Shown here: one piece after another, positions 21,991 to 62,086 of the stretch
Position numbering within the stretch: the first letter of the stretch is position 1
Layout of the letters: every line of letters begins with the position of its first letter
Assembly: GCA_963753595.1 (NCBI GenBank)
Contig: CAVWCX010000001.1
Span: forward strand, 64,001 to 128,000
Origin: Candidatus Methanoperedenaceae archaeon
Lineage (GTDB): Archaea > Halobacteriota > Methanosarcinia > Methanosarcinales > Methanoperedenaceae
Length of the DNA: 64,000 bases
Reading direction: 5' to 3'
Translations under genes and position numbers: made by a program
The notes under the pieces: generated by a model
Told to the model about the DNA's origin: nothing
What the model saw: only the letters and a program-made list of their open reading frames with translations
The model's database searches: none

Positions 21991-21998
21991 GTGAAATA

Positions 21999-22337
21999 AT
22001 GCTTGAAATACTTAAGAAAACCATTAAAACCGGCTGCCAAACAACGAAATATCCCGCTGTACCTGATATTGCGCCGGAGGGATTTCGCGGAAAACCGGAG
22101 TTCACTTCCAATAATTGTACCTATTGCGGTGAATGCGTCAAAGCCTGTCCGCCTGGTGTTATCCTGCTTAAAGAAAAAAGCGGCGAAAAGACGCTTTCAT
22201 TATCATATTGCGGCTGCATATTCTGTGGAAGATGCGAGGAAGTATGCAAATACGGTGCCGTCAGGCTTACACAGGAATATGAACTCGCATCAAAGACAAA
22301 AGAAGACCTTGTTACCAGTATCCGGAGAAAGTTATGA
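21999..22337 (+). CDS. 2x[4Fe-4S] ferredoxin subunit (HyfH/NuoI-like)
   Basis: FRGKP, CTYCGECVKACP, CIFCGRCEEVC. Confidence 0.9.
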   Translation: MLEILKKTIKTGCQTTKYPAVPDIAPEGFRGKPEFTSNNCTYCGECVKACPPGVILLKEKSGEKTLSLSYCGCIFCGRCEEVCKYGAVRLTQEYELASKTKEDLVTSIRRKL

Positions 22338-42201: not shown

Positions 42202-43683
42202 GTGAATATTTTGACCTTATACACACTTCTTCATAAATCAGTAATTTTGAGTCTTATTTTTATGTTCTTGTCTTCATCAGTATCAGCGAACTGGCAGAAT
42301 TATGGCGGGGATCTTGTGCATAGCGGTTATTCAGGAAGTTCGCAAATTCCATTGGAATTGAGGTGGAAATACCATGCAGGGAACTCAGAAATTTCTGCGC
42401 CTGTTATTGATGAAGGAATACTTTTTGTGGGTTCTGATGATAATAATTTGTATGCTATAGACGCTGTTAAGGGTGAATTAAAATGGCAGTTTCCCGCACT
42501 TGGAAAAGTCTATACACCGGCAGCAAAAAACGGAGTGGTTTTTGCGGCTTCCTATGATAATTATATTTACGCTTTAGATTATAATGGGAACCTGAAGTGG
42601 AAATCTAATATCTGGGGCAGTATAGCCTCGCCTCCAGTTGCTGATAATAATATTCTCTATGGCGGGTCTGAGATGTATATTTATGCAATATTTATAAACA
42701 ATGGCAGTATAAACTGGAAATATGCAACCAACGGCAAGGTAGAATCCTCACCGGCAATATCACAGGGCCTTGTTTATGCCGGATCATACGATGATAACTT
42801 ATACGCCCTGGATGCAGGAAACAAAAACCTCAGATGGAAATATCCGACCGGCGGGAGCGTCACATCGTCTCCGGCTGTGATAAACGGCATTGTATTTGCA
42901 GGGTCAAACGATAACTACATTTATGCTATTGATTCCAATAGCGGAGAATTGAAATGGCGAAAAAAAACAAATGATATAGTAAAATCAACTCCTGCAGTTT
43001 TTCAAAAATCGGTTTATGTAGGTTCTAATGACAATACATTATATGCAATGGACATGGATAATGGGGATATTATCTGGAAATTTGTAACCAACGGATGGGT
43101 AGACTCACAACCAATAGTGACAAAAGATATTGTTTATGCAGGATCAAAAGACGGAACCATTTATGCTATTGATAGGGAAAAAGGAACTAAAGTCAGTAGT
43201 TATGATGCAGGCAGCGGAATAATTTCCCTGGCAATATCTGATAGTATCTTGTATGCTACATCAAATGATGGTTATGTTTATGCTTTTGGTGCCCGGATTC
43301 CTGAATCGACAACGATCTCTAAAGTCGCTCAGGATTTGATCCCTCCTGAACTTAGAATAAATCCTATTCCCATAAATGTTACTTCTGATACACTGACCGT
43401 TTCAGGCACAGCAAAGGATCCAGGCGGCATATTGATTGTTACAGTTAATGGTATTGATGCCGGGGCAGATAACTGGAAAACAACATTGAAACTTTCTAAT
43501 GGTATAAATATTATATCGATAAAGGCAGTAGATAAATCAGGAAATATTAAAACAGAGGTTCGTACGGTTAGATATAATCCTCCTGAAATTCAGGAAACAC
43601 CTGAAGTTCCGGGATTTTCTCTTTATCTTTGTTTAGTATCCTTTGCAGCAATTGTAATTTTTAGTAAAAATAAAAAAAATTAA
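42202..43683 (+). CDS. PQQ-like/BamB-type beta-propeller surface protein with Ig-like domain and PGF-CTERM
   Basis: Signal peptide, repeated V.SSPA...G.VY.GS.D..LYA.D...G...WK blades, VPGF-TM-basic tail. Confidence 0.85.
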   Translation: MNILTLYTLLHKSVILSLIFMFLSSSVSANWQNYGGDLVHSGYSGSSQIPLELRWKYHAGNSEISAPVIDEGILFVGSDDNNLYAIDAVKGELKWQFPALGKVYTPAAKNGVVFAASYDNYIYALDYNGNLKWKSNIWGSIASPPVADNNILYGGSEMYIYAIFINNGSINWKYATNGKVESSPAISQGLVYAGSYDDNLYALDAGNKNLRWKYPTGGSVTSSPAVINGIVFAGSNDNYIYAIDSNSGELKWRKKTNDIVKSTPAVFQKSVYVGSNDNTLYAMDMDNGDIIWKFVTNGWVDSQPIVTKDIVYAGSKDGTIYAIDREKGTKVSSYDAGSGIISLAISDSILYATSNDGYVYAFGARIPESTTISKVAQDLIPPELRINPIPINVTSDTLTVSGTAKDPGGILIVTVNGIDAGADNWKTTLKLSNGINIISIKAVDKSGNIKTEVRTVRYNPPEIQETPEVPGFSLYLCLVSFAAIVIFSKNKKN

Positions 43684-43733
43684 TTTTGTAAAACTTAAAT
43701 AGTAATATTATTGTATGTGCTTATAACTGCAAA

Positions 43734-45995
43734 ATGACAATCTTAAATAAAATCAAGCTGGATTCTAAGAGCCACATTTTCTTATTTTTAATACTTTTAA
43801 TCGGTCTTATTGTAAGGTTTTTTACTTTTTCCCAGGTATTTGAACAAGGCCGGATAGTGTTTCTTGAGACAGATCCATATTATCATATGTGGCGGGTATT
43901 TTCATATATTGAGATGTTCCCAAAAACATTCTTTTTTGATCCGTTTATTAATTATCCATACGGAGTTGTTGTGGGGTGGCCGCCCCTCTTTGATCAAATT
44001 ATCGCGCTTATATCTTTAATTGCCGGTCTTGGGAAACCTGGCATACATCTTGTTGAAACGATAGGAGTATTTATTCCTGTTATTTCAGGTATTTTCTCAA
44101 TAATTTCAGTATATTATATAACAAAAGAAATTTTTAATGAACGTATCGCCCTCTACAGTTCCCTTTTACTTGCAGTGATGCCGGCGCATGCCCAGATATC
44201 TTTTCTTGGATTTACAGACCATCATATCGCAGAAGTTCTAATTTCGGTTCTGGCTTATTTGTTTTTTATAAAATCAATAAAAAAAGAATCCTGTTTGTTT
44301 TCAATTTTATCCGGAATTATGATCGGATTATCTTTTTTAATATGGATTGGGGCACCGATATTCATCGGGATAATATTATCCTATATAGTCATTCAATTCG
44401 TTTTGGATAAAAAATCAAATATTAATTCTGATTATCTTCTGAAAACCGGTACAATTTCTTTTTTGACCGCATTTGTTATGATCATCTTTTTTTATCTCTG
44501 GACACCATGGCAAAAGGATATCCAGGCAGGTACGCTGTCATATTTTCAGCCAGTATATGTATTTTTATGTGCTATAATAGTACTTGTTTTTGGGATAACT
44601 TCCAGGATAATGAAGGATAAAAAATGGGTTTTATTTCCGATAATGATTTTAATTATGTTCACTTCCTTTTTTTCAATACTGGTATTTAGTTTTCCATCTT
44701 TCTATGATAATTTATTAAATGGCATAGGATATTTGCTCACGGATGCGCCTCTATTAAAACAAATAGTTGAGGCACAGCCGTTATTTTATACCTATGACGG
44801 GATTTTCCTGGGATGGCAATTCTTCAGTAACCCTGTGTGGTATTCATTTGCTTTTAGTTTTTATTTTGCGATCATCGGGCTTTTATTATTGTTATATTAC
44901 CATCGAACAGGAATTGATAAAGGAAGATTGTTTCTTGTAATATGGACATCGATAGTCCTTGTGCTTGCATTGTTCCAGAGACGCTTCACTTATACGCTGG
45001 CAGTGAATGTTGCGATATTGTCGGGATTTTTTATAGATAATATCACATTTAATATACGTAATATATATAAAACATATACATATAAGTCCATGGCTTTTAA
45101 TCTGAAATCGGGCCACATCGCTTTGTTAATTCTCATGGTTCTTTGTATTCCAAATTTAGTATTGGCATATAACATGGCACAGTCCCCGCCCAAACCTTCG
45201 GATGACTGGTATGAATCATTGATATGGTTAAGAGAAAACACTCCTGATCCGGGAAAAAGTCCTGAATATGGCATAATGACATGGTGGGATTACGGGAACT
45301 GGATCTTGTATATCTCAAAGCGCCCTGTTGTTGCTAATAATTTCCAGATTGGCGGGGACAGCGCTGCGAAGTTTTTTGTTGCGCCGGATGAGACTGCTGC
45401 AAATAAGATAATGGATATGCGAAAAGCAAGATATGTGATCCTTGATCACAGGATGGGCTTAAATAAGTTCAGGGAGGGAGATCAAGTCTTGTTAAGAGGT
45501 ACATTCTTTGCTATTGCAGGTTTTGCAGACGAGGATATTGCAATGTATTTAGACCGAAATAACCTTCCCAATCAAAATTTTGCCAATACCATGTATGCCA
45601 GGATGCACATATTTGACGGAAACGGGCTTGAATATTACAGGATGATTTACGAATCAAAAGAGACACATTATAACTTATTCGACAGGCCCACGAGAAATAT
45701 CAAAATATTTGAATACGTAAAAGGAGCAAAAATTACTGGAAAAGCATCATCAAATGCAACTGTTTTTATTTCAGGAAAAATAATTACAAACCAGGGACGC
45801 ATATTTGATTATTTAAAGGAAGTAAAAGCTGATGAAAAAGGATATTTTGAGTTCATTGTCCCGTATTCCAGAGAAGGTCCATATGAAACAACATTACTGA
45901 ATAGTTATAACATAAAATACGACAATTCAAATATTTCTATCAACGTATCAGAGAATGATGTCCTGAAGGGAAATATAATAAAGGTGAACTTATGA
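43734..45995 (+). CDS. aglB: Oligosaccharyltransferase AglB/STT3 paralog
   Basis: ETDPYYH, GFTDHH.AE, I.EAQPL, QRRF.Y, MTWWDYGNWI, R.VVANNFQ, KIFEYVKGA. Confidence 0.92.
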   Translation: MTILNKIKLDSKSHIFLFLILLIGLIVRFFTFSQVFEQGRIVFLETDPYYHMWRVFSYIEMFPKTFFFDPFINYPYGVVVGWPPLFDQIIALISLIAGLGKPGIHLVETIGVFIPVISGIFSIISVYYITKEIFNERIALYSSLLLAVMPAHAQISFLGFTDHHIAEVLISVLAYLFFIKSIKKESCLFSILSGIMIGLSFLIWIGAPIFIGIILSYIVIQFVLDKKSNINSDYLLKTGTISFLTAFVMIIFFYLWTPWQKDIQAGTLSYFQPVYVFLCAIIVLVFGITSRIMKDKKWVLFPIMILIMFTSFFSILVFSFPSFYDNLLNGIGYLLTDAPLLKQIVEAQPLFYTYDGIFLGWQFFSNPVWYSFAFSFYFAIIGLLLLLYYHRTGIDKGRLFLVIWTSIVLVLALFQRRFTYTLAVNVAILSGFFIDNITFNIRNIYKTYTYKSMAFNLKSGHIALLILMVLCIPNLVLAYNMAQSPPKPSDDWYESLIWLRENTPDPGKSPEYGIMTWWDYGNWILYISKRPVVANNFQIGGDSAAKFFVAPDETAANKIMDMRKARYVILDHRMGLNKFREGDQVLLRGTFFAIAGFADEDIAMYLDRNNLPNQNFANTMYARMHIFDGNGLEYYRMIYESKETHYNLFDRPTRNIKIFEYVKGAKITGKASSNATVFISGKIITNQGRIFDYLKEVKADEKGYFEFIVPYSREGPYETTLLNSYNIKYDNSNISINVSENDVLKGNIIKVNL

Positions 45996-47605
45996 AACCC
46001 ATATGCAAAATAATGATAATATTAATTATTTTTTATTCAAGCATTTTTCCGGTATTTGCCGAGGAGCCGGAATGGGTCGATCCCCAGGAAAAAACGATGA
46101 GAATGACAGAATCATTTACAAGAGAAGGCTATGTTATAGAAGCAACTGATTTTTATGATTATTCAGCATTGATAACGGTCTTTGATACAAAAGGAAACCT
46201 TGTAACAAGAAATGTGACTCGAATTGATGATTATTTTGTCGTTGATGACAGGTTAAATATTAGTATAATCAACCTTCAGGAAGTCAGGGGTAACATAGGA
46301 GCAAATCTCGGATTAAATGTATCTGTGGACCAGTGGGTGAAGATAAGAACAAGAGTGAAAGGAAGGCCTTCAATAAAATTATCAATCATCCCGAAAGGGA
46401 TCGAAATTAATAATAAGTCAATTGTCAGGCATACATATATTCCTGGCTCTGAAATCGCGGTAAATTTTTCAGTAAGGAACGAGGGTAAGGCCAGGCTAAA
46501 AGATATGATCTTAAAGATCAATACCTCGATGCCAGTGCTGTATGATGAAAAATTGAATTATGAAATACTTGAATTGGGCGCGGGAAACGAATCCGATCCG
46601 ATCACTGTCAGGTTTCAGGCACCGTACACAGGAGAGCGAAAGTCGATATCGATCATGGTAGAAGCAATTGGATATGATATCTATGGGAAGGCATATAGGG
46701 CAGCTGATTCAGCATTTATCGAGTTAATCCCTCCATTTGATAATAAAATCGATCTTAAAAAATATATTTCAGAAAAAGTATATATGGGTGACGTTGCCGT
46801 TGTTTCCATAAATATCAGGAACAATGGAAGTCAAAAATTAGATAATGTGAATTTAACTGACAGTCTTCCACCCGGGATCGAACCAATAGATACGAACCTT
46901 TCATGGAATTTTACTTTAGGGCCATTTGAACAAAAAACAATATCATATATGGTAAAACCCCAAAAACCCGGAATTTATTTCTTCTTACCGGGAAGTTCCA
47001 TTATTGAATATCAGGGCGTATTGGATTACAATAAGAAACCCATTAAATTGATCGTGGGCGGTCCTTATGTAGTTTTATTGAAATATGCAAGCTCCTATGA
47101 TATTTTCAAAGGCGATAATGTCAATGTAACGGTGGAAGCTAAAAACATGGGAGATGCCACAGCGATAGTAAAACTCAATGAAACTATCCCGGCGAATTAT
47201 TCCCTGACTTTCGGGAACCAAACATATGAGACAGTTTCAGATACTATGGTACTTCATCCCGGTATGTCGGGATCATTTTCTTATTTGCTTTTTGCATCTG
47301 GCACAGGAGGTTTTATTCTCCCGCCGGCAAAAGCAATAATTCTTGATAAGATCCTGTATAAGGATGAACGATATACACAAAGAGCCACTTCGGCTGAAGT
47401 GATAATAAAAGTCAGGGAGCCATTGAAAATGGAACTTTCCTCTTCCAAAATGACTTCAATACCGAAAAAATCCACCAGTCCTGAAAGTATTGAGACAAAT
47501 GTCCCATCTGAAACACCTAAATCTTCAGCTGGATTCGAGGGATATATTTTTATCATTTTCGTCCTAGTTATAGTGGTTATAAGAAAATTGAATTTCAGAA
47601 TTTGA
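45992..47605 (+). CDS. Multi Ig-like (BatD/DUF11-type) surface glycoprotein with PGF-CTERM-like tail
   Basis: Signal peptide, V.I.N.G...L.NV.LTDSLP.G repeats, Ser/Thr/Pro linker, AGFE-TM-RK. Confidence 0.75.
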   Translation: MKPICKIMIILIIFYSSIFPVFAEEPEWVDPQEKTMRMTESFTREGYVIEATDFYDYSALITVFDTKGNLVTRNVTRIDDYFVVDDRLNISIINLQEVRGNIGANLGLNVSVDQWVKIRTRVKGRPSIKLSIIPKGIEINNKSIVRHTYIPGSEIAVNFSVRNEGKARLKDMILKINTSMPVLYDEKLNYEILELGAGNESDPITVRFQAPYTGERKSISIMVEAIGYDIYGKAYRAADSAFIELIPPFDNKIDLKKYISEKVYMGDVAVVSINIRNNGSQKLDNVNLTDSLPPGIEPIDTNLSWNFTLGPFEQKTISYMVKPQKPGIYFFLPGSSIIEYQGVLDYNKKPIKLIVGGPYVVLLKYASSYDIFKGDNVNVTVEAKNMGDATAIVKLNETIPANYSLTFGNQTYETVSDTMVLHPGMSGSFSYLLFASGTGGFILPPAKAIILDKILYKDERYTQRATSAEVIIKVREPLKMELSSSKMTSIPKKSTSPESIETNVPSETPKSSAGFEGYIFIIFVLVIVVIRKLNFRI

Positions 47606-47625
47606 ATTACTAATGGGTTTCCTAC

Positions 47626-48300
47626 ATGTTGAAAAAATTATTTACAAAAAATAACAGGGAATATCGGTTAATAAAGACAACCTTGATAATATCTGTCTTA
47701 ATAATTTTTGTTTCTTCTCTTGCAATATCCGTAAATGCATACGAAAGACCCGAATATACGGATGGATTGACTGATAAATGGCATCCAGGCGCCTATTGTA
47801 TACCCTGTCATTATACCCTGTTGAGTACGGATAAAGCCCAATCGATTTCAAATGGGTGCAAATGCCATGATTACGTACCGAAAAATGCAGAAAATAAGTA
47901 TAAAGTTGATATGACAAAGATTTTCAATATCCATGAGGATATCGTATGCATAAGGTGCCATGTTGGTGTGAAGGAAGGGACCAACGTGACCGCGGCGGAT
48001 TTCCACAGGATAATGAACAAAGAGACATGCATGACATGCCATACTTATGAGAATGGCACGATCCAAAAGCCACTAAAAACGAAATGCTCCGACTGTCATT
48101 CAGGTGATCCGCATGTGGTTCACGGCAAAAGGCTTGAAAAAATGTGCGAGACATGTCATGGGGATTTTGCGAAAAACTATGTTGGGGGTAAAACAATTAG
48201 TCCCATATCGACTAAACCTGAAGTTGCTGTTAAGGAATACACAACAATAGGGCAGATTATCAGTAACTTAGTTGAGTCTTTAATGCAAATATTCAGGTGA
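47626..48300 (+). CDS. Secreted multiheme cytochrome c (5 CxxCH + 1 CxCH)
   Basis: CIPCH, CKCH, CIRCH, CMTCH, CSDCH, CETCH; PH.VH distal ligands; amphipathic C-terminal helix. Confidence 0.88.
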   Translation: MLKKLFTKNNREYRLIKTTLIISVLIIFVSSLAISVNAYERPEYTDGLTDKWHPGAYCIPCHYTLLSTDKAQSISNGCKCHDYVPKNAENKYKVDMTKIFNIHEDIVCIRCHVGVKEGTNVTAADFHRIMNKETCMTCHTYENGTIQKPLKTKCSDCHSGDPHVVHGKRLEKMCETCHGDFAKNYVGGKTISPISTKPEVAVKEYTTIGQIISNLVESLMQIFR

Positions 48301-48728
48301 ATATGAAATTAATTCTGGTGCTGTTTTTCATTTCAGTAATGATTTTCTCCGGCTGCATAGGAAATCCCACAAAACAAGTACCTGTAGTACATGTTAATAT
48401 CACTTTTGTGGAAAAAGAGGGTTTTTCGCAAGTGCAAAATTATAAAATAACCCAGGAGACGGTCAACTATCTTGGAAGGCCTAAAAAAACCCAGGCTGAA
48501 TCTTTCCCTGCCATAACTGCAAGAACGATGATAATGAAAGAAAAAAATAGTAGTATAGGGCCATGGGAAACTCTGTCCTATAATGGAAATGGGATTTATT
48601 CATTTAATATCGGATTTAAGGACGACAATTATCCTGCAGCCGGAGATAAAGTACATATTTCTATAATGGTCGTTGATAAAAAAGGGGATAGAATAGGATA
48701 TTTCGTGCAGGATATGGTTTGGGAATGA
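48297..48728 (+). CDS. Lipoprotein
   Basis: Lipobox FSGC; GTGA overlap with the cytochrome. Confidence 0.75.
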   Translation: MNMKLILVLFFISVMIFSGCIGNPTKQVPVVHVNITFVEKEGFSQVQNYKITQETVNYLGRPKKTQAESFPAITARTMIMKEKNSSIGPWETLSYNGNGIYSFNIGFKDDNYPAAGDKVHISIMVVDKKGDRIGYFVQDMVWE

Positions 48729-48853
48729 AATTGATACACTAAATATTGAGTATCCTGATATAATATTGAAATCATAAAGTATTTATGGCAATAAAAGAAA
48801 TAAAAGGGTAGTAAAGGTATGGATATTTGATTTAATAAAAGGTGGAAAGTCTT

Positions 48854-49536
48854 ATGAGTAACAAAATGATATTAATTGGGATTGCAATAGCAGCAATTGG
48901 GTTGGTTGCACTACCACAAACATTAGCATTATTTGCAGGACAGCATAACTTCTATGATAATATAGGCAATGGCGCTGCAGCTATTCCATGTGAGAAATGC
49001 CATGCGGATGTATTTTCAGAACTGAGCCAGCCCGGATCAGTAAATGCAGTTCATATGCGTCAGGGTTGTGAGGGATGCCATGTAACGACTGCTCCTACGA
49101 AAGAAGGGCTTGTGCAGGGTGGGAATTTAACGGATGATTTCCACGCAGCTGCATTACCTTTGTGTTTGGATTGCCATAGTGGCACAGGACCAGGAGCAGA
49201 TGCGAGATCGATACTTGAAGGTACTGTAGAAGCTCATACGGCATTTGCAAACCAGGCTAATGACTCTTTGCTCCTGCGGGGTTCTAATGAAGCATGTATT
49301 TCATGTCATACACATGTTGCGGTGGACATAAACTGGACAAAGGCTTATAAGATCAGCTTCAATGCCATGGAAAATGCAACAACTGGCCTTCATGAATGGA
49401 CTGTTGATAACTTCGCTACAGAAGGTACGGTCCAGATACAGACTACGGCAACAGGTCCGGTGAGATCAATAGTGCAACAGAACCAGTAGTATCTATTACA
49501 CCAGCACCACTAGGTTTTGATCCCAGCAATCCATGA
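48854..49536 (+). CDS. Secreted tetraheme cytochrome c, LFAGQH family (one-base frameshift at ~49443; called ORF stops at 49489)
   Basis: CEKCH, CEGCH, CLDCH, CISCH; the shifted frame gives YGNRSGE...NP*, matching YGNGSGE...TP* of the paralog at 59922; T-rich terminator follows 49536. Confidence 0.85.
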
Positions 49537-49580
49537 GTAAGTAGGAAAAATAACTTTTTTTCCTATTTTTATCTTTTTTT

Positions 49581-50306
49581 ATGTATATCCCTTTAAATGA
49601 TATACTGTTTCTTTTAATTCTTTTGGCATTTTTGATAATGGTATATAGAAGAATTATTTACAGCATTAGTTTTTCTGAGCCAATTATCCAAACCTTTAAA
49701 ACTTTTGACAGGAAGCATAGGATCAATGCTTATATTAAACAAATAAACCAAAGACCAGAAGAATCCCAGAAAGTCGTATTAAAAGAGCTATTTATTTTTA
49801 TATTTGCACTAATGATAATGTTCCTTTTTGCTTCAAAAGCAATTTTGTTTACAGCTGTGATATCAGGGAGCATGTCTCCCACCTTCGATAAGGATGATCT
49901 TGTCCTTATGCAGAATATAGACCGTACATACAAACCCGGGGACATAATAATGTTCGAGCGGCCAGATACTTCATTTCCTGTTGTACATAGAATAAAGCAG
50001 ATTACAGACAAAGGTATAAATACAGCAGGTGATGCCACGGATCAGGTGGACTGGTGGGAACTCGAAAAAGAAAAAATTCTCGGGAAAGCTATTATGATAC
50101 AGGGGAAACCAGTAGTTATAAAAGGATATGGTAAGTTCTTCATAATTGATGAACGTAACCAGGACTTTGGTCCAATGGGGCAGGATTACGGAAAATACTT
50201 TTTATTTTTCCAGATTATAAAGATTTATGGATATGTTATTGCAGTGTTTTCTTTATTTCTTTATATTTTTATGACATTAAGGCAAAAGCCATGGCAAAGT
50301 AGATAA
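49581..50306 (+). CDS. Archaeal/SipW-type signal peptidase I (S26B)
   Basis: VISGSMSPT (Ser), PGDIIMF, VVHRI (His), T.GD; extra TM helices. Confidence 0.88.
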   Translation: MYIPLNDILFLLILLAFLIMVYRRIIYSISFSEPIIQTFKTFDRKHRINAYIKQINQRPEESQKVVLKELFIFIFALMIMFLFASKAILFTAVISGSMSPTFDKDDLVLMQNIDRTYKPGDIIMFERPDTSFPVVHRIKQITDKGINTAGDATDQVDWWELEKEKILGKAIMIQGKPVVIKGYGKFFIIDERNQDFGPMGQDYGKYFLFFQIIKIYGYVIAVFSLFLYIFMTLRQKPWQSR

Positions 50307-50329
50307 TATTCTGAATGATAGGTGTATAA

Positions 50330-53429: not shown

Positions 53430-53433
53430 AATA

Positions 53434-54957
53434 TCATATAAAAGTAGTTGCAGTCTCTTCCACCAAATAAATAGCTACACCTTTTCGTGTGAGGTAATGG
53501 AAACGATCAGGGGAATCAAACATGATCCCTCCTCCATCGTAGATAAAGATAATAGAATCATATCTCTTTCCGTCTTTCCCATCCACAACAACGAATTGCC
53601 CGTCATTGTTTGAAGCCCCATAGACCAGATGCTTGTTATCCGGGCTGAAAAGTAAAGAACCTTCTATAATATCATCATATTGTTTTCCTATATTGCCGTC
53701 AATAACATCTTTTAAACCATCATCATTTCCAAAATCTTCAAAATTCATGGGGACAGAGCTAAATGAAATCACGCCGCTATAAGTTGATTTTTTCTCAGTT
53801 GTTTCCTCTATCACGAACCATTTATCTTTTTCTCTTGCCGCATAAGCTACCCGTTTGCTGTCAGGGCTAAATACTGGAGTATATTTCAGGATATCATCAT
53901 ACCGCTGTCCCTCTTTTCCATCCACAACTACGAACCATTTATCGCCTTCTCTTGCTGCGTAAGCGATCCTTTTTCCATCAGGACTGAAGGTGATACTATG
54001 TTTCAATATGCTGCCGTATATTTTTTCCTCTTTTCCATCTACTACTACAAACCACCCATTTCCCTCTCTTGCTGCATAAGCGATCTGTTTGCTGTCCGGG
54101 CTGAAGATGGGAGTGTATTTCAGGATTTCATCATATGTTTTCCCTTCCTCTTCATTTTCTACAACAAACCACTTTCCGTCCTTTTTTGCTACATAAGCCG
54201 TCTTATTGCTGTCAGGACTGAACATGAGGGTGTTTGTCAGTATGCTATCATATTGCTGTCCCTCTTTTCCATCCAATACCACAAACAATTTGCCCTCTTC
54301 TCCTGCGACATAGGCTACTCGATTGCTGTCAGGACTAAAGACAGGGTAAAAACTGCTTTGAAATTTCTTATCTTCTTTTCCATCCACAACCACGAACCAT
54401 TTATCTTCCTCCCTTGCTTCATAGGCTATCCTTTCGCTGTCCGGGCTAAAGACAGGCATTTTGATGCTATCGTATTGTTTTTCTTCTTTTCCATCTACGA
54501 CCACAAACCATTTACTGCTATCATTTGCCACATAAGCCTGGCGCCTGCCATCAGGACTGAAAACCAGGTTTCTAACATTTTCATAATGAGTTTCTTCTTT
54601 TCCATTAAGTACTACAAACCACCTCTCATTCTCTTTTGCGGCATAAGCCAGGCTTTTGCTATCCGGGCTAAAAATGAAACCATTTATATCATCGTATTTT
54701 TTTTCATTTTCTCCATTCAGGACAATGAATTTCTTTTCTCCTTCAGTTTCAACATAAACAAATTGCATACTATCCGGACTTACCTTGAAAGTCTCCGGAA
54801 CCCCCGAAAAAAAACCGAATTTAACAATAAGTTTTTCTGAAATCACCCTGCCGGCTATTTCTTCATTATTTTGCGCTCTTGATGGAGTATCCCGCGAAAT
54901 ACAACCACTTGCCAATATTATTATAATTAGAATAAAAGTAATTATGTATTTTTTCAT
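53434..54957 (-). CDS. TolB/PD40-like beta-propeller lipoprotein
   Basis: Lipobox ASGC; ~9 tandem FSPD.KR.AY.A....KWFVVVDGKE...YD.I repeats. Confidence 0.85.
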   Translation of the reverse strand: MKKYIITFILIIIILASGCISRDTPSRAQNNEEIAGRVISEKLIVKFGFFSGVPETFKVSPDSMQFVYVETEGEKKFIVLNGENEKKYDDINGFIFSPDSKSLAYAAKENERWFVVLNGKEETHYENVRNLVFSPDGRRQAYVANDSSKWFVVVDGKEEKQYDSIKMPVFSPDSERIAYEAREEDKWFVVVDGKEDKKFQSSFYPVFSPDSNRVAYVAGEEGKLFVVLDGKEGQQYDSILTNTLMFSPDSNKTAYVAKKDGKWFVVENEEEGKTYDEILKYTPIFSPDSKQIAYAAREGNGWFVVVDGKEEKIYGSILKHSITFSPDGKRIAYAAREGDKWFVVVDGKEGQRYDDILKYTPVFSPDSKRVAYAAREKDKWFVIEETTEKKSTYSGVISFSSVPMNFEDFGNDDGLKDVIDGNIGKQYDDIIEGSLLFSPDNKHLVYGASNNDGQFVVVDGKDGKRYDSIIFIYDGGGIMFDSPDRFHYLTRKGVAIYLVEETATTFI

Positions 54958-55082
54958 ATTTAATTTAAACAAATTCACTTTTAATAAAGCCTTTAAGTAT
55001 ATAGATTTGGCTGAGTAATCAACCTGTATTGATTGAATGTTTTAAGCCTTATTTTCAAAATCTTTATAAGTAAATCAGTATA

Positions 55083-56372
55083 TTGTTGTGCGTGGAATTT
55101 AAACTGACTATCCTAATTATGGTATTTATTCTCTTTGCCGTTCCTTCCCTGGCTGTTGATAATGGATATGCCAGGATAGTTTATAATGTAAGGGGATTGC
55201 AGGATTATGATCTGCACTGGAACGACAGGTTCCCTCCCGGGAGCACTTTAAGAATTTATGCAGAGGCAAACGGCGTGAATCATAAGCGCCAGGTGGCAGT
55301 TGATTACATTTTTATTATTAAGGATCCAAATAATAATGTTATAGATACGGCATTATATAGCAATAGATATGAAGATTACAGGGAAAATGATTTCATGACC
55401 TATTCAAGGAATGTGCCGCAAGAGTGGGATGATGGGGTTTATACGGCTGATATACATATTTTTGACCTGTTGAATGAAACACTAATGGATACATATTATC
55501 GTGAACTTATAATGTCATATTTGAATGAGAGTGACAGGCCTGATCTTCCGGTAATGAATCGAAGCAATGCATCAGTTCTGCCGGAACAGCACATGATAAT
55601 TAAGAAAACCTTTTTTATTGACAGGTATGCAAATAAATATCCCGTTGACAGATTCAGAATAGAAAAAATCATGCTTGATAGAACAAGTGTTGCGCCAAAT
55701 ATGCCAGTTGCGGTTAGCGCCAATGTGATCAATACTTTTTATGATAAAGGTTCAACATCTATTGATTTGTTATTAGATAATAAAGTAATTAACAAAACTA
55801 CGCTGGAAATTGAAAGTTATAGTTCCAGCCAGGCTATTTTCACAGTTTCCACCGAAATTATCGGGAACCATACTGTAGAAATTATACCGACTGGAATGAA
55901 TACTATTGGAATAAATCTGTCCGGTGTCTTCATGGTGAGCGCCGAAAAAGAGATAGAAAAACCTACGGAATTTGTTTACCAGGATATACAGATAGATAAA
56001 TTAAGTGTCGAGCCAAACGGGACCGTGATTATCGCTGTGACAGTAAAAAATACAGGAAAGGAAGGAATCCAGTCTGTGGAGTTGTATATTAATGATGTCC
56101 TGGAAGAAGAAAGACAGGTAGATCTAAACTTTTCGGAAATTAAAGATATTTTATTCAATGTGACCAAAAAAGATCTGGGCGCATACAGGGTTACAGTTGG
56201 CAAATCAACTCTTAGCAAGGTTTTTTTTGTGGAATCAAGTACACCTGTTCCTTTTGTAACAGCCGGACCCAAAATAGAAAAAAAGCCGCAGCTTAAGGTC
56301 GTGATCGGCCTATCAGTTATTGTTATATTGATATATCTTTTAAGAATATATTTAAAAAATAAATGGAAGTGA
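55083..56372 (+). CDS. CARDB/Ig-domain membrane-anchored surface protein
   Basis: Signal peptide, V.V.NTG..G...V.L.IN, G.Y.V.VG, C-terminal TM + basic tail. Confidence 0.75.
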   Translation: MLCVEFKLTILIMVFILFAVPSLAVDNGYARIVYNVRGLQDYDLHWNDRFPPGSTLRIYAEANGVNHKRQVAVDYIFIIKDPNNNVIDTALYSNRYEDYRENDFMTYSRNVPQEWDDGVYTADIHIFDLLNETLMDTYYRELIMSYLNESDRPDLPVMNRSNASVLPEQHMIIKKTFFIDRYANKYPVDRFRIEKIMLDRTSVAPNMPVAVSANVINTFYDKGSTSIDLLLDNKVINKTTLEIESYSSSQAIFTVSTEIIGNHTVEIIPTGMNTIGINLSGVFMVSAEKEIEKPTEFVYQDIQIDKLSVEPNGTVIIAVTVKNTGKEGIQSVELYINDVLEEERQVDLNFSEIKDILFNVTKKDLGAYRVTVGKSTLSKVFFVESSTPVPFVTAGPKIEKKPQLKVVIGLSVIVILIYLLRIYLKNKWK

Positions 56373-56376
56373 TAAA

Positions 56377-57114
56377 ATGGTAGCAAGAATCATTGCCATA
56401 GCATCGGGAAAAGGCGGTGTCGGTAAAACGACTATCGCTTTGAACTTGGGATTTGCTATGGCATCATTAAAAAAGAATGTCCTGGTCATAGACACTGACG
56501 TATCTCTTCCAAATCTGGATCTATATACAGGACTTGAAAAACCATTAATTACTCTTCTTGAGGTATTGAATGGCTCAGCAAATATCCAGAGCGCGATATA
56601 CTCAATCCAGATGGGGCTGAACATCCTGCCATGCGGTTCTTCGATTGAAGCTTTACGCGGTGCAGATATTGACAAATTAGGAGATATTATCTCAGAATTA
56701 AAAAACAGCGAATTTGATTTTATAATTCTGGATGTTCCTGCAGGTCTTTCCAAGTTCAGTTTATTGCCCATGACATATTCCGATGAGGTTATACTTATTG
56801 TCAATCCGGACCCGGCTTCCATATCAGATGCCCGGAAGGTAAGAACAGTATCCGGGCTTACTGATATGAAGATCACAGGCATAATTGTGAATAAATTTAA
56901 AAAGAACAATTATGAGGACATTGGAATAAAATTAGGACTGCCAGTTATCGGGGTGGTACCTGTGGATGATGCTGTCGTTAAATCCAGGGATTCAAGAAAA
57001 CCTGTAATATTACTGAAACCAAAATCTGCTCCCGCAAAAGCATTAATGCAAATAGCAAGAAAAGTATGCGGGATCCCTGAGAAAAAAAGTATTTTAGCGA
57101 GATTATTAGGATAA
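56377..57114 (+). CDS. minD: MinD-family ATPase
   Basis: ASGKGGVGKTT, IDTD...PNL, ILDVPAG, amphipathic MTS KKSILARLLG. Confidence 0.88.
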   Translation: MVARIIAIASGKGGVGKTTIALNLGFAMASLKKNVLVIDTDVSLPNLDLYTGLEKPLITLLEVLNGSANIQSAIYSIQMGLNILPCGSSIEALRGADIDKLGDIISELKNSEFDFIILDVPAGLSKFSLLPMTYSDEVILIVNPDPASISDARKVRTVSGLTDMKITGIIVNKFKKNNYEDIGIKLGLPVIGVVPVDDAVVKSRDSRKPVILLKPKSAPAKALMQIARKVCGIPEKKSILARLLG

Positions 57115-57116
57115 TT

Positions 57117-57732
57117 ATGGACAAGACCAAGGAAAAGGAAGTTTTGGATTTTCTTATGGATGATGGCACATGGGAAAAGACTCCCGGGAAAAAAATCGTT
57201 CAAAAACAACAGGAAATTGGAAAACCAAAAGTCAGCCAACCTGGTAAAATCCCCGAAAATCGAAAATCTGAAAATATGGGGCATATAAACGAAGTCGCAA
57301 AAGAATTTACAAATGAAGAGGTTGATAAAAAAATATAAAAAGACAGGCGATGTTTCTGAAAATGAATTTGGTGAAGTGGATTATGCTATCCTGAAATCAG
57401 TGACTTTTGGTTTTAAAACCATAAAAGAAATTGCAGAAGTGCTGCAAATAAGGACAATGGTCATTGAGAAACATATTTATAAACTTATTCAGGATGGATT
57501 TATAAAATATTTTCAATATTGTGTAATTACTTCAAGGGGAAAACAAGTAATTGAAGACTTTGTGAAAGATAATCCCGAAGATGTCTGGATGCCAATAGAT
57601 GAATTTATATTATCAGTTATCGAACAGAAAAAAGAACGAAATTTAAAGTTCCAGAAGATGGTCGATTTAATTCTTCTTATCTCCATGATAATTTTGATTG
57701 TGCTGATTATTTATTTTGGGCTCATCGCATGA
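57117..57732 (+). CDS. Membrane-anchored winged-helix protein; probably one gene split at A7 (57327-57333)
   Basis: Removing one A fuses EEVDKK to YKKTGD; D.AIL..TIKEIAE.L.....E.HI.KL...GF....ITSRG wHTH; C-terminal TM. Confidence 0.65.
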
Positions 57733-57783
57733 TTTTCAAAAAAGACAAACAGACTGCAGATAAGCGTATTATTGACACTTTCG

Positions 57784-57847
57784 GCCAACATTATCTTAAC
57801 GGCGCCGGGGTTGCGACCCCAGACCCCTGCGGTGCGCCGCCGTTGGC
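57784..57847. repeat. GC-rich palindromic intergenic element
   Basis: GCCAAC...GTTGGC and AACGGCG...CGCCGTT enclosing GGGGTTGCGACCCC. Confidence 0.5.
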
Positions 57848-57894
57848 GGATTATAACATTAACAATACCTGTAATATTTCTAAGTCAAAGACCA

Positions 57895-59637
57895 ATGTAT
57901 AAAAAAATTGTTAAATTATTGGAATCGAACCAAATTCCGTTATCAATATTTTTCATTTCATTATTTGTATTTCTCAGTTTTGCAGGCACACGTATGCTAT
58001 TTTCAGATGAAGGGATAATCGTAAGCCAGTTCTATAATTTTATACATGGTTCTTTAGATTTACAAACGGCCAAAGTGAATGTGGAAAGGGGAATATATAC
58101 GACTGTTGAAAATCATATATATGGAAGATTCAGTTATTCATTGCTTATATTATCTTTACCTGTATATATTATATTAAAAAATATAGATTATTTTTATGGT
58201 GCGCATTTATTTCTTCTGCAGATATGGGCTTTAAGCGGCGGGATATGTGTTTATCTTCTCACAAAAAACTGGAAAATAAAGAATGCGGCATTAGGTGGGG
58301 TTGTATCTTATTTCATATTAATAATGGTCAATCTGCTATCATTTGATCCTATTTATTTTCCTAAATGGGGGGAAATTATATCAATTGAATTTACTAATAT
58401 TCTAATCTCTTCTTTTTTGGTTTTAATGGTATATTTCTTATTCAAGAATCTATTTAATAATAAAATCGCTATCTTCGCGTCTCTTTTTGTTATATTCGCA
58501 ACGCCCATATCCTTTTATTCAATTACGTTGAAGCATCATTCTCTTGCTCTATTATTAACTGTATTGGCATTTTATTTTTTTTATAAATACCAGGAAAAAA
58601 AAGAAAATAAGTTTATTTATTATGCTTATCTATTAGCAGGACTTTGCATCTGGACTAGAATTGCAGAGGGTGCAGCACTTCTGTTGTCCCTCCTTATAAT
58701 AGATATAGTATTTTCCAGGCGAAGCATCAAACATATTGCCTTTGTCTCAATTATTATTCTGGTCTCACTTATCCCATTTTTCATTTTCAATCAATTGATA
58801 CTGGGGAATCCGTTTTCGATCATGGAATTACGCCCCTTAAGTGATATGCCCATGAAAATGGAGATTGAAAAAAATATGATCGTGCTAAGTGAAAGTTCGG
58901 TAAAAGCCAGGCAGGTAGAACTTCTGAATAATCTTGGCTTTATCTGGAATCCAGGGATCAAGACTGCCTTTTTGGACATTATGTCGTATATTTCGATTCG
59001 AAAAATGGGAAACACGTTTGGCCTATTCTTAATAAGTCCATTCTTGATAATCGCGCTTGCGTTTGTTATAGATCGGATAAAAAAGAAAATCAAGTTAAAT
59101 GCAACAGATAAATTATTGGGACTATACGCCATAATATTTATTTTAATACATAAAAATTACCTTAAATTAATAATTACTGATACACCAGTAGTTCTCGAAT
59201 ACAGGTATTTACTTATTATGTATATAGTCCTTCTTTATTTTGGGCTTAGAATAGATAAAGTCGGGGATCTTATTGAAAATAACTATAAGAAAATAGTACA
59301 GTTATACGCAGCCGCAGTAATAATACTAATTTTATATTTTATTAATATTTTTCCTCCCCCCTTCATGAATTTATACTATTCTTTAGCGTTGATCACTTCA
59401 ATCATTTTATTGATTTCATTATCGATGAGTATTTTAATTGAGAATAAAAAATCTTTTGCTGATTTATTGGATAAAATTACATTATTTTTCATCGCATTGT
59501 CACTTGCGCAAGCTTCCATATTGCTGCTTTTTTATTACTGGGTTGTTAGTATTACCTACATTTCGCCATCACAAAATTATACTGTAGTGCCAATTATTGG
59601 GAGTATTTTGAAATGGATGTACCAGGCACTTTTGTGA
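57895..59637 (+). CDS. Polytopic GT-C/PMT-like membrane glycosyltransferase candidate
   Basis: FSDEG in the first loop, many TMs, FATPI.FYS...KHH, WTR..EG, EYRYL; start moved to ATG 57895. Confidence 0.6.
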   Translation: MYKKIVKLLESNQIPLSIFFISLFVFLSFAGTRMLFSDEGIIVSQFYNFIHGSLDLQTAKVNVERGIYTTVENHIYGRFSYSLLILSLPVYIILKNIDYFYGAHLFLLQIWALSGGICVYLLTKNWKIKNAALGGVVSYFILIMVNLLSFDPIYFPKWGEIISIEFTNILISSFLVLMVYFLFKNLFNNKIAIFASLFVIFATPISFYSITLKHHSLALLLTVLAFYFFYKYQEKKENKFIYYAYLLAGLCIWTRIAEGAALLLSLLIIDIVFSRRSIKHIAFVSIIILVSLIPFFIFNQLILGNPFSIMELRPLSDMPMKMEIEKNMIVLSESSVKARQVELLNNLGFIWNPGIKTAFLDIMSYISIRKMGNTFGLFLISPFLIIALAFVIDRIKKKIKLNATDKLLGLYAIIFILIHKNYLKLIITDTPVVLEYRYLLIMYIVLLYFGLRIDKVGDLIENNYKKIVQLYAAAVIILILYFINIFPPPFMNLYYSLALITSIILLISLSMSILIENKKSFADLLDKITLFFIALSLAQASILLLFYYWVVSITYISPSQNYTVVPIIGSILKWMYQALL

Positions 59638-59921
59638 ATTTCCAGGTTAATGTTTAATCATTTTATTAAAAAACGTTCTTAAAATAATGGATAGGATAGG
59701 GAACTTGCAGCCTGATACTATTTATCATGATTAATTGAAATTAATGAATCGTAAAGTATATATGCTGTAAACTCATATCCTAATTATACCCAAATTGACA
59801 CCAAATTGGGAAAATGGATAGGATAGGAGCGATAGCAAAACGAAGATTGTGTTTGCTTGATTCTTATTCTTAACAAACCAAATTGGATTTAGGGTTAATA
59901 AAGATAGGATGTGAAAAATAT

Positions 59922-61181
59922 ATGAACGCAAAATTTACTTTAGCCATAATTGCGTTAGTTGGAATAGGCGTGTTCGCCCTGCCATCAACCATGTCGTTGT
60001 TCGCAGGCCAGCACTCGTTCTATAACATTGACGCAACAGGCAACCAGGTCCCGTGTGTGAAATGCCACGGTGATGTGAAAGCAGAATTGGGATCAAATGC
60101 AAATACAGTTGCAGCCAATGGACCCCTGACAGCAGGACCACACGCAGCATTTAAGTGCGAGTACTGCCACAGAATAGAACAGGGTGCTTCCAGCGGTGAC
60201 AATGCAGTTGCAATAGTTCCATACGAAAATGCGACAGGAGCAATTATAAGGGCAATTGCAATACCAGTATCAGACATGGAAGCAGGTAATTTCCCAACGG
60301 GAATTACGGGTGCTATGCTATTTACTAGCAGCAGTACAACTCTTAATGGTACAAAATTACAATTCGGTAAGGGTGCTATCAGTGCAGCTACAGCCGATGC
60401 AACATTAGAAGTAGCTCCCAGACAAGATTGGACAATAATGGCATCATATGATGCAATTACTGGCTTACCCAAGGATACAAACGCATCCACAATGTATGGT
60501 GGAATTGACCCATCGAAGATAAACGTCACTATAAATACTGCTAGACCATACGTTAGTCTTGGTTTCTTGAATGCAGGTTCACAGGCAGTCAACCCGGGCA
60601 GCAAATATCATGCAGCATCACTTGTATCATGCATGGAATGCCACGGTGGCGAAGAACCACTTGGTCACTATACCAGAGTTACAAGCGAAACGAGATGTTC
60701 TGACTGTCACTACGGTTACAACCCAGTTCCAGGCGCTAGATGGACTCAGCTCGCAGCAGGCGGCTTCGGACTTACAACATCCGCAAATGATACTGGCACA
60801 TCAGAAGCCCATAACGCATGGGTAAAAACCGATGACGGTATAAACAGATTCGGCGGACAACAGGGCAAGGAAGCAAATAACGGTGCATGTATTGGATGCC
60901 ATACCCACGTAGCAGTAGACATTGCATTCAATAAGGGCTACAAGCTCTCATTCACTGCAACCGAGGCAGCAACCGGTTCTTATACTGTTTCCGATGCAAA
61001 AGTTGAGGGAACAGTTCACGTTGACATATACGGCAACGGTTCTGGCGAAACCTTCGGTGTGGGCGACAAGTCCTATACCTGGACACCAGAGACAACCCTG
61101 TATCTCAATGGTAATGGCACAGTTATCAGCGGTCTCAATGGAGACTCCAGCGACAGCGCAACAGCTCTTACAACCCCGTAA
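59922..61181 (+). CDS. Secreted pentaheme cytochrome c, LFAGQH family, with a large heme-free insert
   Basis: LPSTMSLFAGQHSFY, CVKCH, CEYCH, CMECH, CSDCH, ACIGCHTHVAVDI; GGATGTGA RBS before ATG 59922. Confidence 0.9.
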   Translation: MNAKFTLAIIALVGIGVFALPSTMSLFAGQHSFYNIDATGNQVPCVKCHGDVKAELGSNANTVAANGPLTAGPHAAFKCEYCHRIEQGASSGDNAVAIVPYENATGAIIRAIAIPVSDMEAGNFPTGITGAMLFTSSSTTLNGTKLQFGKGAISAATADATLEVAPRQDWTIMASYDAITGLPKDTNASTMYGGIDPSKINVTINTARPYVSLGFLNAGSQAVNPGSKYHAASLVSCMECHGGEEPLGHYTRVTSETRCSDCHYGYNPVPGARWTQLAAGGFGLTTSANDTGTSEAHNAWVKTDDGINRFGGQQGKEANNGACIGCHTHVAVDIAFNKGYKLSFTATEAATGSYTVSDAKVEGTVHVDIYGNGSGETFGVGDKSYTWTPETTLYLNGNGTVISGLNGDSSDSATALTTP

Positions 61182-61184
61182 TGA

Positions 61185-61225
61185 AATGGGTAATCCCCAT
61201 TTCTCTTTTTTTTAATTCTCTTTTA
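61185..61225 (+). terminator. Hairpin + oligo-T terminator
   Basis: AAATGGG-TAATC-CCCATTT followed by T tracts. Confidence 0.7.
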
Positions 61226-62082: not shown

Positions 62083-62086
62083 ATTG

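Follow-up and report, generated by a model that had tools for sequence, protein, structure and literature searches.

Multihaem cytochrome genes of the AvECN family and their recurring neighbours in a Methanoperedenaceae archaeon

Three genes for multihaem cytochromes of the AvECN family (also the MmcX family) are found in the window analysed here, which comprises 64,000 nucleotides of a Candidatus Methanoperedenaceae archaeon (assembly GCA_963753595.1, contig CAVWCX010000001.1, positions 64,001 to 128,000 of the forward strand). They lie among 16 plausible genes at positions 42202-61181 of the window, 14 of which are on the plus strand and two on the minus strand (52842-54978). Sequence comparison shows that the three proteins, here called ECN4, ECN11 (or ECN-long), and ECN5, are homologous to a cytochrome filament subunit from Archaeoglobus veneficus. 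That A. veneficus extracellular cytochrome nanowire (ECN), AvECN, was reportedly described by Baquero et al. in 2023. A core set of neighbouring genes, including a signal peptidase of the S26 family and a membrane protein (mem336), recurs beside the ECN family in several archaeal orders. We propose, with a probability of roughly 0.6, that this is an extracellular cytochrome locus whose core genes build a filament, and that polymerization of its subunits is licensed by the peptidase. Coordinates of all features are collected in Table 1.

The likeness of the three cytochromes to the A. veneficus subunit had been suggested in an earlier note made from the sequence, and it was borne out by searches. 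The sole significant sequence match of each protein in PDB is 8e5g_A, with E-values of 1.3e-27 for ECN4 (query residues 3-117 and 120-192), 8.5e-22 for ECN5 (3-87 and 217-384), and 9.9e-8 for ECN11. The PDB title of 8E5G is "Cryo-EM of A. veneficus cytochrome filament", and a review names this structure AvECN (PMC12954529). In an alignment of 17 ECN family sequences (A1), the four CxxCH sites (C46-H50, C72-H76, C104-H108, and C148-H152) are invariant in all 17, as are exactly four further histidines, H31, H97, H128, and H154. The eight invariant histidines are the number needed for bis-histidine ligation of four haems. The first of the additional histidines, H31, is that of a conserved LFAGQH sequence near the N terminus. 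All solved filaments except OmcZ need an axial histidine from the neighbouring subunit, and this would include 8E5G (10.1101/2023.06.12.544705).

The three genes, at 48854, 50330, and 59922, are paralogous and share a signal peptide and the LFAGQH junction, as the same note had held. Each protein begins with a hydrophobic leader whose last residues are P-x-(T/I)-x-(A/S); LFAGQHxFY comes next. By BLASTP, ECN4 matches ECN11 with an E-value of 2.5e-23, and a second internal repeat with 2.2e-15; ECN4 matches ECN5 with 2.5e-16 and 4.7e-16, and ECN11 matches ECN5 with 5e-15.

The family was surveyed by scanning genomes with the family alignment. The scan gave 215 matches, and the best 80 of these 215 were kept, which make up 77 loci from 57 genomes as counted by contig prefix; loci are cited below by number (L001 and so on). 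The A. veneficus genome is not among the 77 loci. The LF.G.H junction is a hallmark of the ECN family, far above chance: its strict form is present within the first 90 amino acids of 116 of the 171 family open reading frames (ORFs) in the 77 loci, against a background of 1 in 2277 other ORFs. A relaxed junction occurs in 39 more of the family ORFs, and the 16 that have none include some fragments. The number of haem sites per family ORF varies from 1 to 11, and is 4 in 85 of the 171. Tandem runs of three to five ECN genes occur in many genomes (L014, L019, L074, and L027), for example five in a row before the long form in a GoM-Arc1 genome (L014:9158-13313).

The paralogues differ in their build. 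ECN4, which has 214 homologues, is the candidate for the main filament subunit. ECN11 consists of two tandem ECN domains (residues 1-193 and 206-358) followed by a three-haem C-terminal part and a C-terminal YTEP motif. ECN5 has one ECN domain that is split by a beta-rich insert of about 150 amino acids bearing the fifth CxxCH. Full-length relatives of ECN5 (381-444 amino acids; 33 representatives at E<=1e-30) exist, and the protein occupies a long branch in the family tree. The division into major, minor, and cap subunits envisaged in the earlier note is an analogy.

Comparison with close relatives bears out a corrected 3' end for ECN4. Relative to L001, L002, and L003, one base is deleted between positions 49443 and 49444 (cagacAtacgg), which shifts the last 33 or so codons; all haem sites are upstream of the deletion. 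The conserved tail YGNRSGEINSATEP...FDPSNP continues in another frame and reaches a stop codon at 49534-49536. Either the assembly is in error at this base, or the protein is truly truncated. A TATA-like 17-mer is located upstream of both ECN4 and ECN5, and it also precedes the ECN4 orthologues in L001-L003. These are the only two matches in the window at up to two mismatches, with a pattern that was derived after the fact from the same two sites.

The S26 gene encodes a divergent signal peptidase I of the archaeal type and is the proposed dedicated processing enzyme of the ECN proteins. Domains of window proteins were called by Pfam and NCBIfam scans, the latter with matches listed at E<=0.01. 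The peptidase scores 58.8 bits against TIGR02228, whose cutoff is 51.85, and this narrow margin fits a specialized paralogue; its match to SipW is 33 bits against a cutoff of 190. All 19 of the 19 sequences compared share S97, M98, P100, H136, D151, and D157, and since the set Ser97/His136/Asp151/157 is thus kept, the peptidase should be active. Neighbours were counted with phmmer (E<=1e-5) by comparing window proteins with all ORFs of at least 50 amino acids in the 77 loci. The peptidase is found in 18 loci, from 18 of the 57 genomes, and is always inside the run of ECN genes. These loci span Methanoperedens, anaerobic methanotrophic archaea of group 1 (ANME-1), GoM-Arc1, Methanocellales, Syntrophoarchaeum, tar-biofilm Halobacteriota, and one Archaeoglobus. 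Their gene order is kept: peptidase, in some cases an ECN gene, a long or mini ECN gene, and mem336.

The gene 3' of the peptidase always encodes an ECN family protein with an N-terminal junction. In the window and nine other loci (from Methanoperedens, ANME-1, Syntrophoarchaeum, GoM-Arc1, tar-biofilm Halobacteriota, and Archaeoglobales), a form with 7-11 haems follows the peptidase; orthologues of ECN-long outside the window have 7-10. Across orders, the long forms end in a conserved (Y/I)(T/E)(E/S)EP motif, with the variants HF.(V/I/L/Y)YTEP, IESEP, and QYTEP, which might be a sorting or docking signal. Four ANME-1-like loci instead have a mini ECN between the peptidase and mem336, with 108-135 amino acids, two or three haem sites, and an LFGG(D/Q)H junction. 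The mini ECN is a candidate cap or primer. In the Methanocellales locus, the ECN protein encoded after the peptidase has 268 amino acids. In a FastTree phylogeny of 150 N-terminal domains, ECN11 groups with support among 18 rows, and 10 of these rows represent genes directly upstream of mem336; 24 of the 171 ORFs were dropped from its input because they lacked the motif or were shorter than 120 amino acids, and long branches make the details of this tree unsafe.

The mem336 gene is found in 15 of the 77 loci, always after the long or mini ECN gene. The mem336 family comprises 125 database proteins, and none of the 120 listed has a Pfam domain. Named members are from Methanoperedens, Halobacteriota, and Methanophagales, the same taxa as the ECN loci. 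Four residues (W208, W209, E215, and W225) are invariant in the 13 sequences aligned, and the tryptophans are located in or beside helix 4. No significant sequence match in PDB was found for mem336, and no usable match in the Atlas. Haem-handling proteins of the CcmC/CcmF type, the class that Chadwick et al. proposed for the membrane protein discussed below, have a tryptophan-rich external loop flanked by conserved histidines. The mem336 protein does not fit that class: none of its histidines is invariant in 13 sequences, and there is no Pfam or NCBIfam match.

The cyt224 gene encodes a c3/c7-like cytochrome and is found in 17 of the 77 loci, always beside lipo143. The cyt224 protein has no significant sequence match in PDB, and an iterated cyt224 profile drifted into all cytochromes and was discarded. 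Its partner, lipo143, is found in 19 loci by phmmer and in 20 after iteration with a hidden Markov model (HMM), the only family whose count was raised in this way. It has no match in Pfam, NCBIfam, or PDB, and in the Atlas only unnamed archaeal clusters below 0.9. We propose cyt224 as an electron feeder close to the membrane.

The CARDB429 and MinD genes are each found in 14 loci and adjoin one another in 10 of them. Loci with CARDB429, which encodes a surface protein, include those of GoM-Arc1, ANME-1, and one Archaeoglobus. The MinD protein has a deviant Walker A motif with its signature lysine (G11-K12-G13-G14-x-G16-K17), which is invariant. Four weak MinD matches are located about 7 kb away in Archaeoglobaceae. 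HTH139, a winged-helix protein, is found in nine loci, always after MinD. Relative to L001, its N-terminal 70 or so residues are encoded in another frame (57072-57272), with the frame change within 57072-57349. This is the second frame change of the single-base type in the locus.

Together these genes follow a recurring order: CARDB in some loci, cyt224, lipo143 ... one or more ECN genes, S26, in some cases another ECN gene, the long or mini ECN, mem336, and in some loci CARDB429, MinD, and HTH139. The core neighbour set recurs beside the ECN family in several archaeal orders, and when all ORFs were clustered without regard to family, the same families ranked as the most frequent real neighbours. 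The peptidase, mem336, CARDB429, MinD, and HTH139 are beside an ECN gene in eight of the 11 Methanoperedens genomes, and the peptidase is by an ECN gene in four of the nine ANME-1 genomes.

The earlier note had described a biogenesis locus in which the cytochromes are accompanied by a further cytochrome (at 47626), a lipoprotein, an S26 peptidase, AglB, a GT-C protein, a CARDB protein, MinD, and proteins with PGF-type tails, and these genes are present as described, according to Pfam and NCBIfam and, for the PGF/AGF tails, to inspection by eye. The synteny survey upholds one part of the neighbourhood: S26, the long paralogue, mem336, cyt224 with lipo143, CARDB429, MinD, and HTH139 form the conserved core across orders. 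The glycosylation and propeller genes, detailed below, do not belong to it. The note had also likened the arrangement to a pilus operon, which fits only loosely. The leaders are of the Sec type, with the hydrophobic stretch first. No prepilin peptidase, assembly ATPase, or platform protein was matched among 18 proteins by Pfam or NCBIfam, and a pilus-type assembly system was rejected because the locus has no genes for these components.

Under the proposal that polymerization is licensed by the peptidase, ECN precursors would be exported by Sec and then cut by the co-encoded peptidase at the invariant P-x-T-x-(A/S)|L-F-x-G-Q-H junction, after the small residue at -1. Cleavage would set free the N-terminal arm, and the histidine of this arm, H31 in precursor numbering, would complete bis-histidine ligation of a haem in the next subunit. 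Subunits could then polymerize head to tail into a filament with a continuous haem chain, in which ECN4 would be the bulk subunit. More speculatively, the long or mini ECN and mem336 may form a membrane-proximal base, cyt224 and lipo143 may supply electrons, and MinD, HTH139, and CARDB429 may act in placement or regulation.

Several observations weigh against this proposal. No ECN filament has been resolved from Methanoperedens, and a thicker filament in Candidatus M. vercellensis was not seen by cryo-EM according to the passage on it (PMC13748539). The cleavage site was placed by the -3/-1 rule only, and the donor histidine between subunits of 8E5G was deduced rather than read from coordinates. 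Structure prediction is of little help: the AlphaFold2 (AF2) model of ECN4 (mean predicted local distance difference test, pLDDT, of 53.5) and that of mem336 (pLDDT 60.9, predicted template-modelling score, pTM, of 0.27) are too poor to use. A Foldseek search with the ECN4 model returned only 8e5g (E = 3.8e-4, probability 0.98, TM score 0.25, root-mean-square deviation 16.7, 28% identity), and because the model is poor this match adds nothing independent of the sequence. A complex prediction of two mature ECN4 chains (residues 26-211) with four haems, run without controls, gave scores of 0.01 and 0.00 against a mark of 0.42, and speaks neither for nor against. The C-terminal tail of ECN4 is shifted in the copy found here, and half of the accessory genes listed in the note are neighbours specific to one lineage. 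In Archaeoglobaceae, to which the organism of the solved filament belongs, only 1 of 18 genomes has the peptidase, and 0 of 18 have mem336, at a distance of up to 10 kb from an ECN gene; these low counts imply that the accessory set is not obligatorily linked to the ECN family. With the survey made on the best 80 of 215 matches and many loci broken by contig ends, the synteny fractions are lower bounds from a biased sample. Finally, a signal peptidase and membrane protein pair was described in ANME archaea by Chadwick et al. in 2022 (see below); if it represents the same families as S26 and mem336, then these are not specific to ECNs.

A bolder reading is that the peptidase, long ECN, and mem336, together with cyt224, lipo143, CARDB429, MinD, and HTH139, constitute a dedicated and as yet undefined archaeal system for building and anchoring filaments. 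The peptidase would be the polymerization switch, the long paralogue, with its YTEP motif, would prime the filament or anchor it on mem336, and MinD would set the site on the cell where it is built. We regard this extension as unlikely on present evidence.

Alternatively, the ECN proteins might form no polymer and instead carry electrons in the pseudo-periplasm, either in solution or in association with the membrane, and the peptidase and membrane protein might be general maturation factors for the numerous multihaem cytochromes in such archaea. Chadwick et al. indeed proposed roles of this kind for a small multihaem family and for their signal peptidase and membrane protein pair (PMC9012536). 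In Shewanella, MmcX altered electrode currents, and the account of that experiment reports no filament (PMC11176372). The want of a resolved Methanoperedens filament (PMC13748539, in its passages on ECNs) and the location of the peptidase away from ECN genes in 17 of the 18 Archaeoglobaceae genomes also fit such carriers. Against them, the nearest relative with a solved structure is the subunit of a filament, and its eight haem ligands are all conserved, including the N-terminal histidine. 8E5G needs the histidine of a neighbouring subunit, and in a monomer built in the same way one haem would be short of a ligand. Moreover, the peptidase is inside ECN runs in 18 loci from eight groups (seven named lineages and one unassigned genome). 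On balance, non-polymeric carriers seem doubtful, and polymerization licensed by the peptidase is preferred.

Among the remaining neighbours, the glycosylation and propeller genes are found only in Methanoperedens. AglB, an oligosaccharyltransferase, is present in seven of the 77 loci, all of them from this genus (7 of 11 genomes); the protein has the Pfam domains AglB_core, AglB_L1, and STT3, and a WWDYG motif in its translation. The PQQ-like propeller is present in six loci (6 of 11), the PD40 lipoprotein in three (3 of 11), and the GT-C protein in two (2 of 11), although most loci end before the position of the last. The PD40 gene and hyp195 form a lineage-specific insertion confined to the window and L001-L003. 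The PD40 protein matches TmcD_fam with 160 bits, below the cutoff of 440. The DUF11 gene overlaps AglB by four bases and is found in nine loci.

Substrates of the PGF-CTERM/archaeosortase A system are marked by a PGF motif at the C terminus, together with a hydrophobic helix and basic terminal residues. By eye, tails with PGF or AGF, a hydrophobic stretch, and basic residues are present on the proteins at 42202 (PGF; ...EVPGFSLYLCLVSFAAIVIFSKNKKN) and 45992 (AGF, with PGF in most orthologues), and no PGF-CTERM HMM matched at E<=0.01. No archaeosortase gene was found in the window. N-x-S/T sequons number 4 in ECN4, 13 in ECN11, and 7 in ECN5; given these and the adjacent AglB, glycosylation is plausible in Methanoperedens. 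For AvECN, extra densities have been mentioned (PMC13748539). Products of the conserved system may be decorated by AglB and the remaining genes for glycosylation and PGF-CTERM proteins, which lie outside that system.

These neighbours are the basis for the least probable reading, a chance juxtaposition of an ECN run with an unrelated surface-glycoprotein island (AglB, PGF-CTERM, GT-C, and propellers) and a MinD cell-biology module: AglB, the propellers, and GT-C do not occur beside the family outside the genus, PD40 and hyp195 are on the opposite strand and missing in L004-L009, where mem336 abuts CARDB429, and TIGR04154 is by name tied to the archaeosortase A system rather than to cytochromes, but the core genes recur together outside Methanoperedens (for example in L014, L040, L055, L065, and L056), and the genes for AglB, DUF11, cyt224, and lipo143 either overlap or leave gaps of 20-50 bases and so are probably co-transcribed, which makes chance quite improbable.

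The rest of the window carries housekeeping genes, including those for LeuRS, FEN1, FtsJ, an Fpo/Mbh-like complex, and an S-layer protein, and on these grounds the window is taken as chromosomal DNA. Its nearest relatives are chromosomal contigs of Candidatus Methanoperedens. The GC content falls to 0.312 across the GT-C gene and rises to 0.423 across ECN5 (58001-60000), a protein with many Ala, Gly, and Thr residues. A Borg origin of the low-GC region was rejected on the grounds of these relatives and of LeuRS, FEN1, FtsJ, and the Fpo/Mbh-like complex. The membrane complex, at 15361-22822, comprises two antiporter-type subunits, a NuoH-like subunit, a fused 30 kDa/49 kDa subunit, and a 20 kDa subunit, and is followed by a Usp protein. 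The N-terminal half of a UvrD-type helicase (6426-7700) and a half with UvrD_C and a PD-(D/E)XK nuclease (8138-9673) are in two ORFs about 440 bases apart, which points either to an AddA-like gene in two parts or to one more frame problem. A GT2 glycosyltransferase ORF (25566-26090) is short at its N terminus, covering only profile positions 58-164, and directly precedes a gene for a DUF2298 membrane protein (26081-28267). Abutting the ECN locus on the minus strand (61429-63790) are a response regulator with a DUF7347 helix-turn-helix domain and a PAS/HAMP histidine kinase; weak homologues are located upstream of the propeller in L003. No Rfam match was found in 41000-64000.

Table 1. Features of the ECN locus (window positions) and of related loci in other genomes (locus:positions)
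Feature	Position	Strand	Description
PQQ/BamB-like beta-propeller	42202-43683	+	Secreted; Pfam PF13570 (6.4e-66), PF13360, PF09136 (Glucodextran_B)
AglB/STT3 oligosaccharyltransferase	43734-45995	+	Archaeosortase-A-associated type; TIGR04154 1e-174, 583 bits (cutoff 450)
DUF11/CARDB surface protein	45992-47605	+	AGF/PGF-type C-terminal anchor; Pfam DUF11, bMG10, BatD, CARDB
cyt224	47626-48300	+	224 aa (amino acids); c3/c7-like cytochrome, five CxxCH and one CKCH; Pfam PF14537, PF02085, PF14522
lipo143	48297-48728	+	143 aa; lipobox protein (…FSGC…), paired with cyt224
TATA-like 17-mer, ATCATAAAGTATTTATG	48771-48787	+	Upstream of ECN4
ECN4	48854-49489	+	211 aa, four CxxCH; tetrahaem AvECN-family cytochrome
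S26 signal peptidase I	49581-50306	+	Divergent archaeal type; extra N- and C-terminal membrane helices
ECN11 (ECN-long)	50330-51895	+	521 aa, 11 CxxCH; long ECN paralogue, with C-terminal motif
mem336	51867-52877	+	336 aa, six predicted helices; no Pfam/NCBIfam match; after long or mini ECN gene
hyp195	52842-53429	-	Secreted; no Pfam/NCBIfam match; lineage-specific insertion; 3 of 77 loci (L001-L003)
PD40/TolB-like beta-propeller lipoprotein	53434-54978	-	PF07676 1e-23; lipobox ASGC
CARDB429	55083-56372	+	CARDB/Ig-like surface protein, C-terminal membrane anchor, no PGF; Pfam CARDB 5.2e-5
MinD/ParA-type ATPase	56377-57114	+	Archaeal; TIGR01969 217.6 bits (cutoff 201.75)
HTH139	57313-57732	+	Winged helix, C-terminal membrane helix; Pfam HTH_40 4.5e-5
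GT-C glycosyltransferase	57772-59637	+	PMT_2-type, membrane; PF13231 3.8e-9
TATA-like 17-mer, second copy	59748-59764	+	Upstream of ECN5
ECN5	59922-61181	+	419 aa, five CxxCH; ECN domain with insert
Long ECN forms, other loci	L007:7846-8943; L010:3225-4307; L041:12498-13649; L029:8651-9835; L014:13310-14569; L040:1954-3309; L012:7498-8739; L076:3945-5234		With C-terminal motif
Mini ECN genes	L037:12395-12742; L047:2801-3136; L055:12812-13138; L065:12414-12821		Candidate cap or primer
Loci with the recurring order	L001-L009; L014; L041, L047, L055, L065; L029; L056; L010, L015, L020; L040		Respectively Methanoperedens; GoM-Arc1; ANME-1; Syntrophoarchaeum; Methanocellales; tar-biofilm Halobacteriota; Archaeoglobus metagenome-assembled genome

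To remove methane, Methanoperedens and ANME archaea transfer electrons out of the cell. How cytochrome filaments are secreted, started, anchored, and stopped is a question without an answer even for Geobacter (10.1101/2025.10.22.684050). The gene set shared across orders provides candidates for genetics, heterologous expression, and structure determination, namely the private peptidase, the long paralogue, and the membrane protein. Published work already covers the cytochrome family, its occurrence in Methanoperedens, and the pairing of a peptidase with a membrane protein in ANME archaea. What is gained here is a sharper and testable assembly hypothesis, in which the peptidase frees the histidine arm that drives polymerization, rather than a new kind of system.

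Among known proteins, the A. veneficus subunit (F2KMU8, PDB 8E5G) is a tetrahaem c-type cytochrome that matches the ECN proteins significantly along nearly the entire domain. It shares with them the leader and the LF.GQH junction (LPSTTSLFLGQH in the PDB alignment), as well as the CHTH... beta-rich C-terminal part. The AvECN precursor has 262 amino acids, whereas ECN4 has 211, and ECN11 and ECN5 are multi-domain forms. AvECN has been seen as a filament; ECN4, ECN11, and ECN5 are known here from genes alone.

Closer in taxonomy are the ECN described in Methanoperedens BLZ2 and in a metagenome-assembled genome from Lake Cadagno (PMC12246660), and ECN^Mv of Candidatus Methanoperedens vercellensis, whose gene cluster is drawn in Fig. 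3a of its report (PMC13748539). The presence of ECN^Mv coincided with the thicker filament of that organism, which was not resolved (PMC13748539). ECN^Mv and the BLZ2 protein belong to the same genus and family as the window proteins, and the BLZ2 contig (L002) has the gene order of the window and an ECN4 that is 86% identical. The passages on ECNs in the two reports name the four-haem gene only; the peptidase, the long paralogue, the membrane protein, and MinD do not come up there. In a review, the AvECN homologues of Methanoperedenaceae are given as a lead still to be followed (PMC13046784). Literature on AvECN or nanowires with peptidases and on filaments with MinD, covered mostly at the level of titles and abstracts and without supplements, yielded no paper tying the peptidase, the long paralogue, the membrane protein, and MinD specifically to the ECN family.

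MmcX of Candidatus Serpentinarchaeum aceticum Met12 (Methanocellales) is a member of the same family and was read as an electron-uptake protein (PMC11176372). The MmcX tree in that paper includes Methanoperedenaceae, ANME-1, ANME-2, Syntropharchaeales, and Archaeoglobales, and its passages on MmcX do not discuss the gene neighbourhood. In the Methanocellales locus of the present survey (L056), the order is lipo143, ECN, S26, ECN, mem336.

Chadwick et al. (2022) described a widespread and highly transcribed family of small multihaem proteins, together with a signal peptidase and an unannotated "8x TMH" protein that are confined to ANME, Syntrophoarchaeum, Geoglobus, and Ferroglobus, and that also occur as a pair in a cytochrome cluster of ANME-1 (PMC9012536). 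This pair resembles S26 and mem336 in joining a signal peptidase to a membrane protein with conserved tryptophans in cytochrome-rich archaea, and the ANME-1 cluster matches L047, L055, and L065. Compared by their descriptions, the Chadwick protein has eight helices and a tryptophan-rich periplasmic loop, whereas mem336 has six helices with its tryptophans in or next to helix 4.

Besides a filament subunit, the bacterial clusters for OmcE and OmcS encode other multihaem cytochromes and beta-propeller lipoproteins, and those of some lineages also have glycosylation genes (10.1101/2025.10.22.684050). This is a similarity of make-up only, and a looser parallel. The sequences are unrelated, the bacterial clusters include an outer-membrane beta-barrel but lack a private signal peptidase, and the propellers of the present locus are not conserved beyond Methanoperedens.

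Archaeal cytochrome nanowires carry Sec signals (PMC12337348), and other Sec-dependent fibres, Taf (TafD, TafG, and TafB) and Abp/TasA, have a dedicated signal peptidase I beside their subunit genes (PMC12337348; PMC12518558). Neither of these two papers draws a link between the signal peptidase and ECNs. The Taf, Abp, and TasA subunits are jelly-roll proteins joined by donor-strand exchange rather than haem proteins, and no homologue of TafG (DUF5305) was seen in the window. Haloarchaeal Taf, AbpX, and TasA/SipW of Bacillus nevertheless resemble the ECN locus in having subunit genes by a private type-I signal peptidase, paralogues that are minor subunits, and a helix-turn-helix regulator. Taf, Abp, and TasA are thus a closer parallel than a pilus operon, and the best functional parallels to the locus described here.

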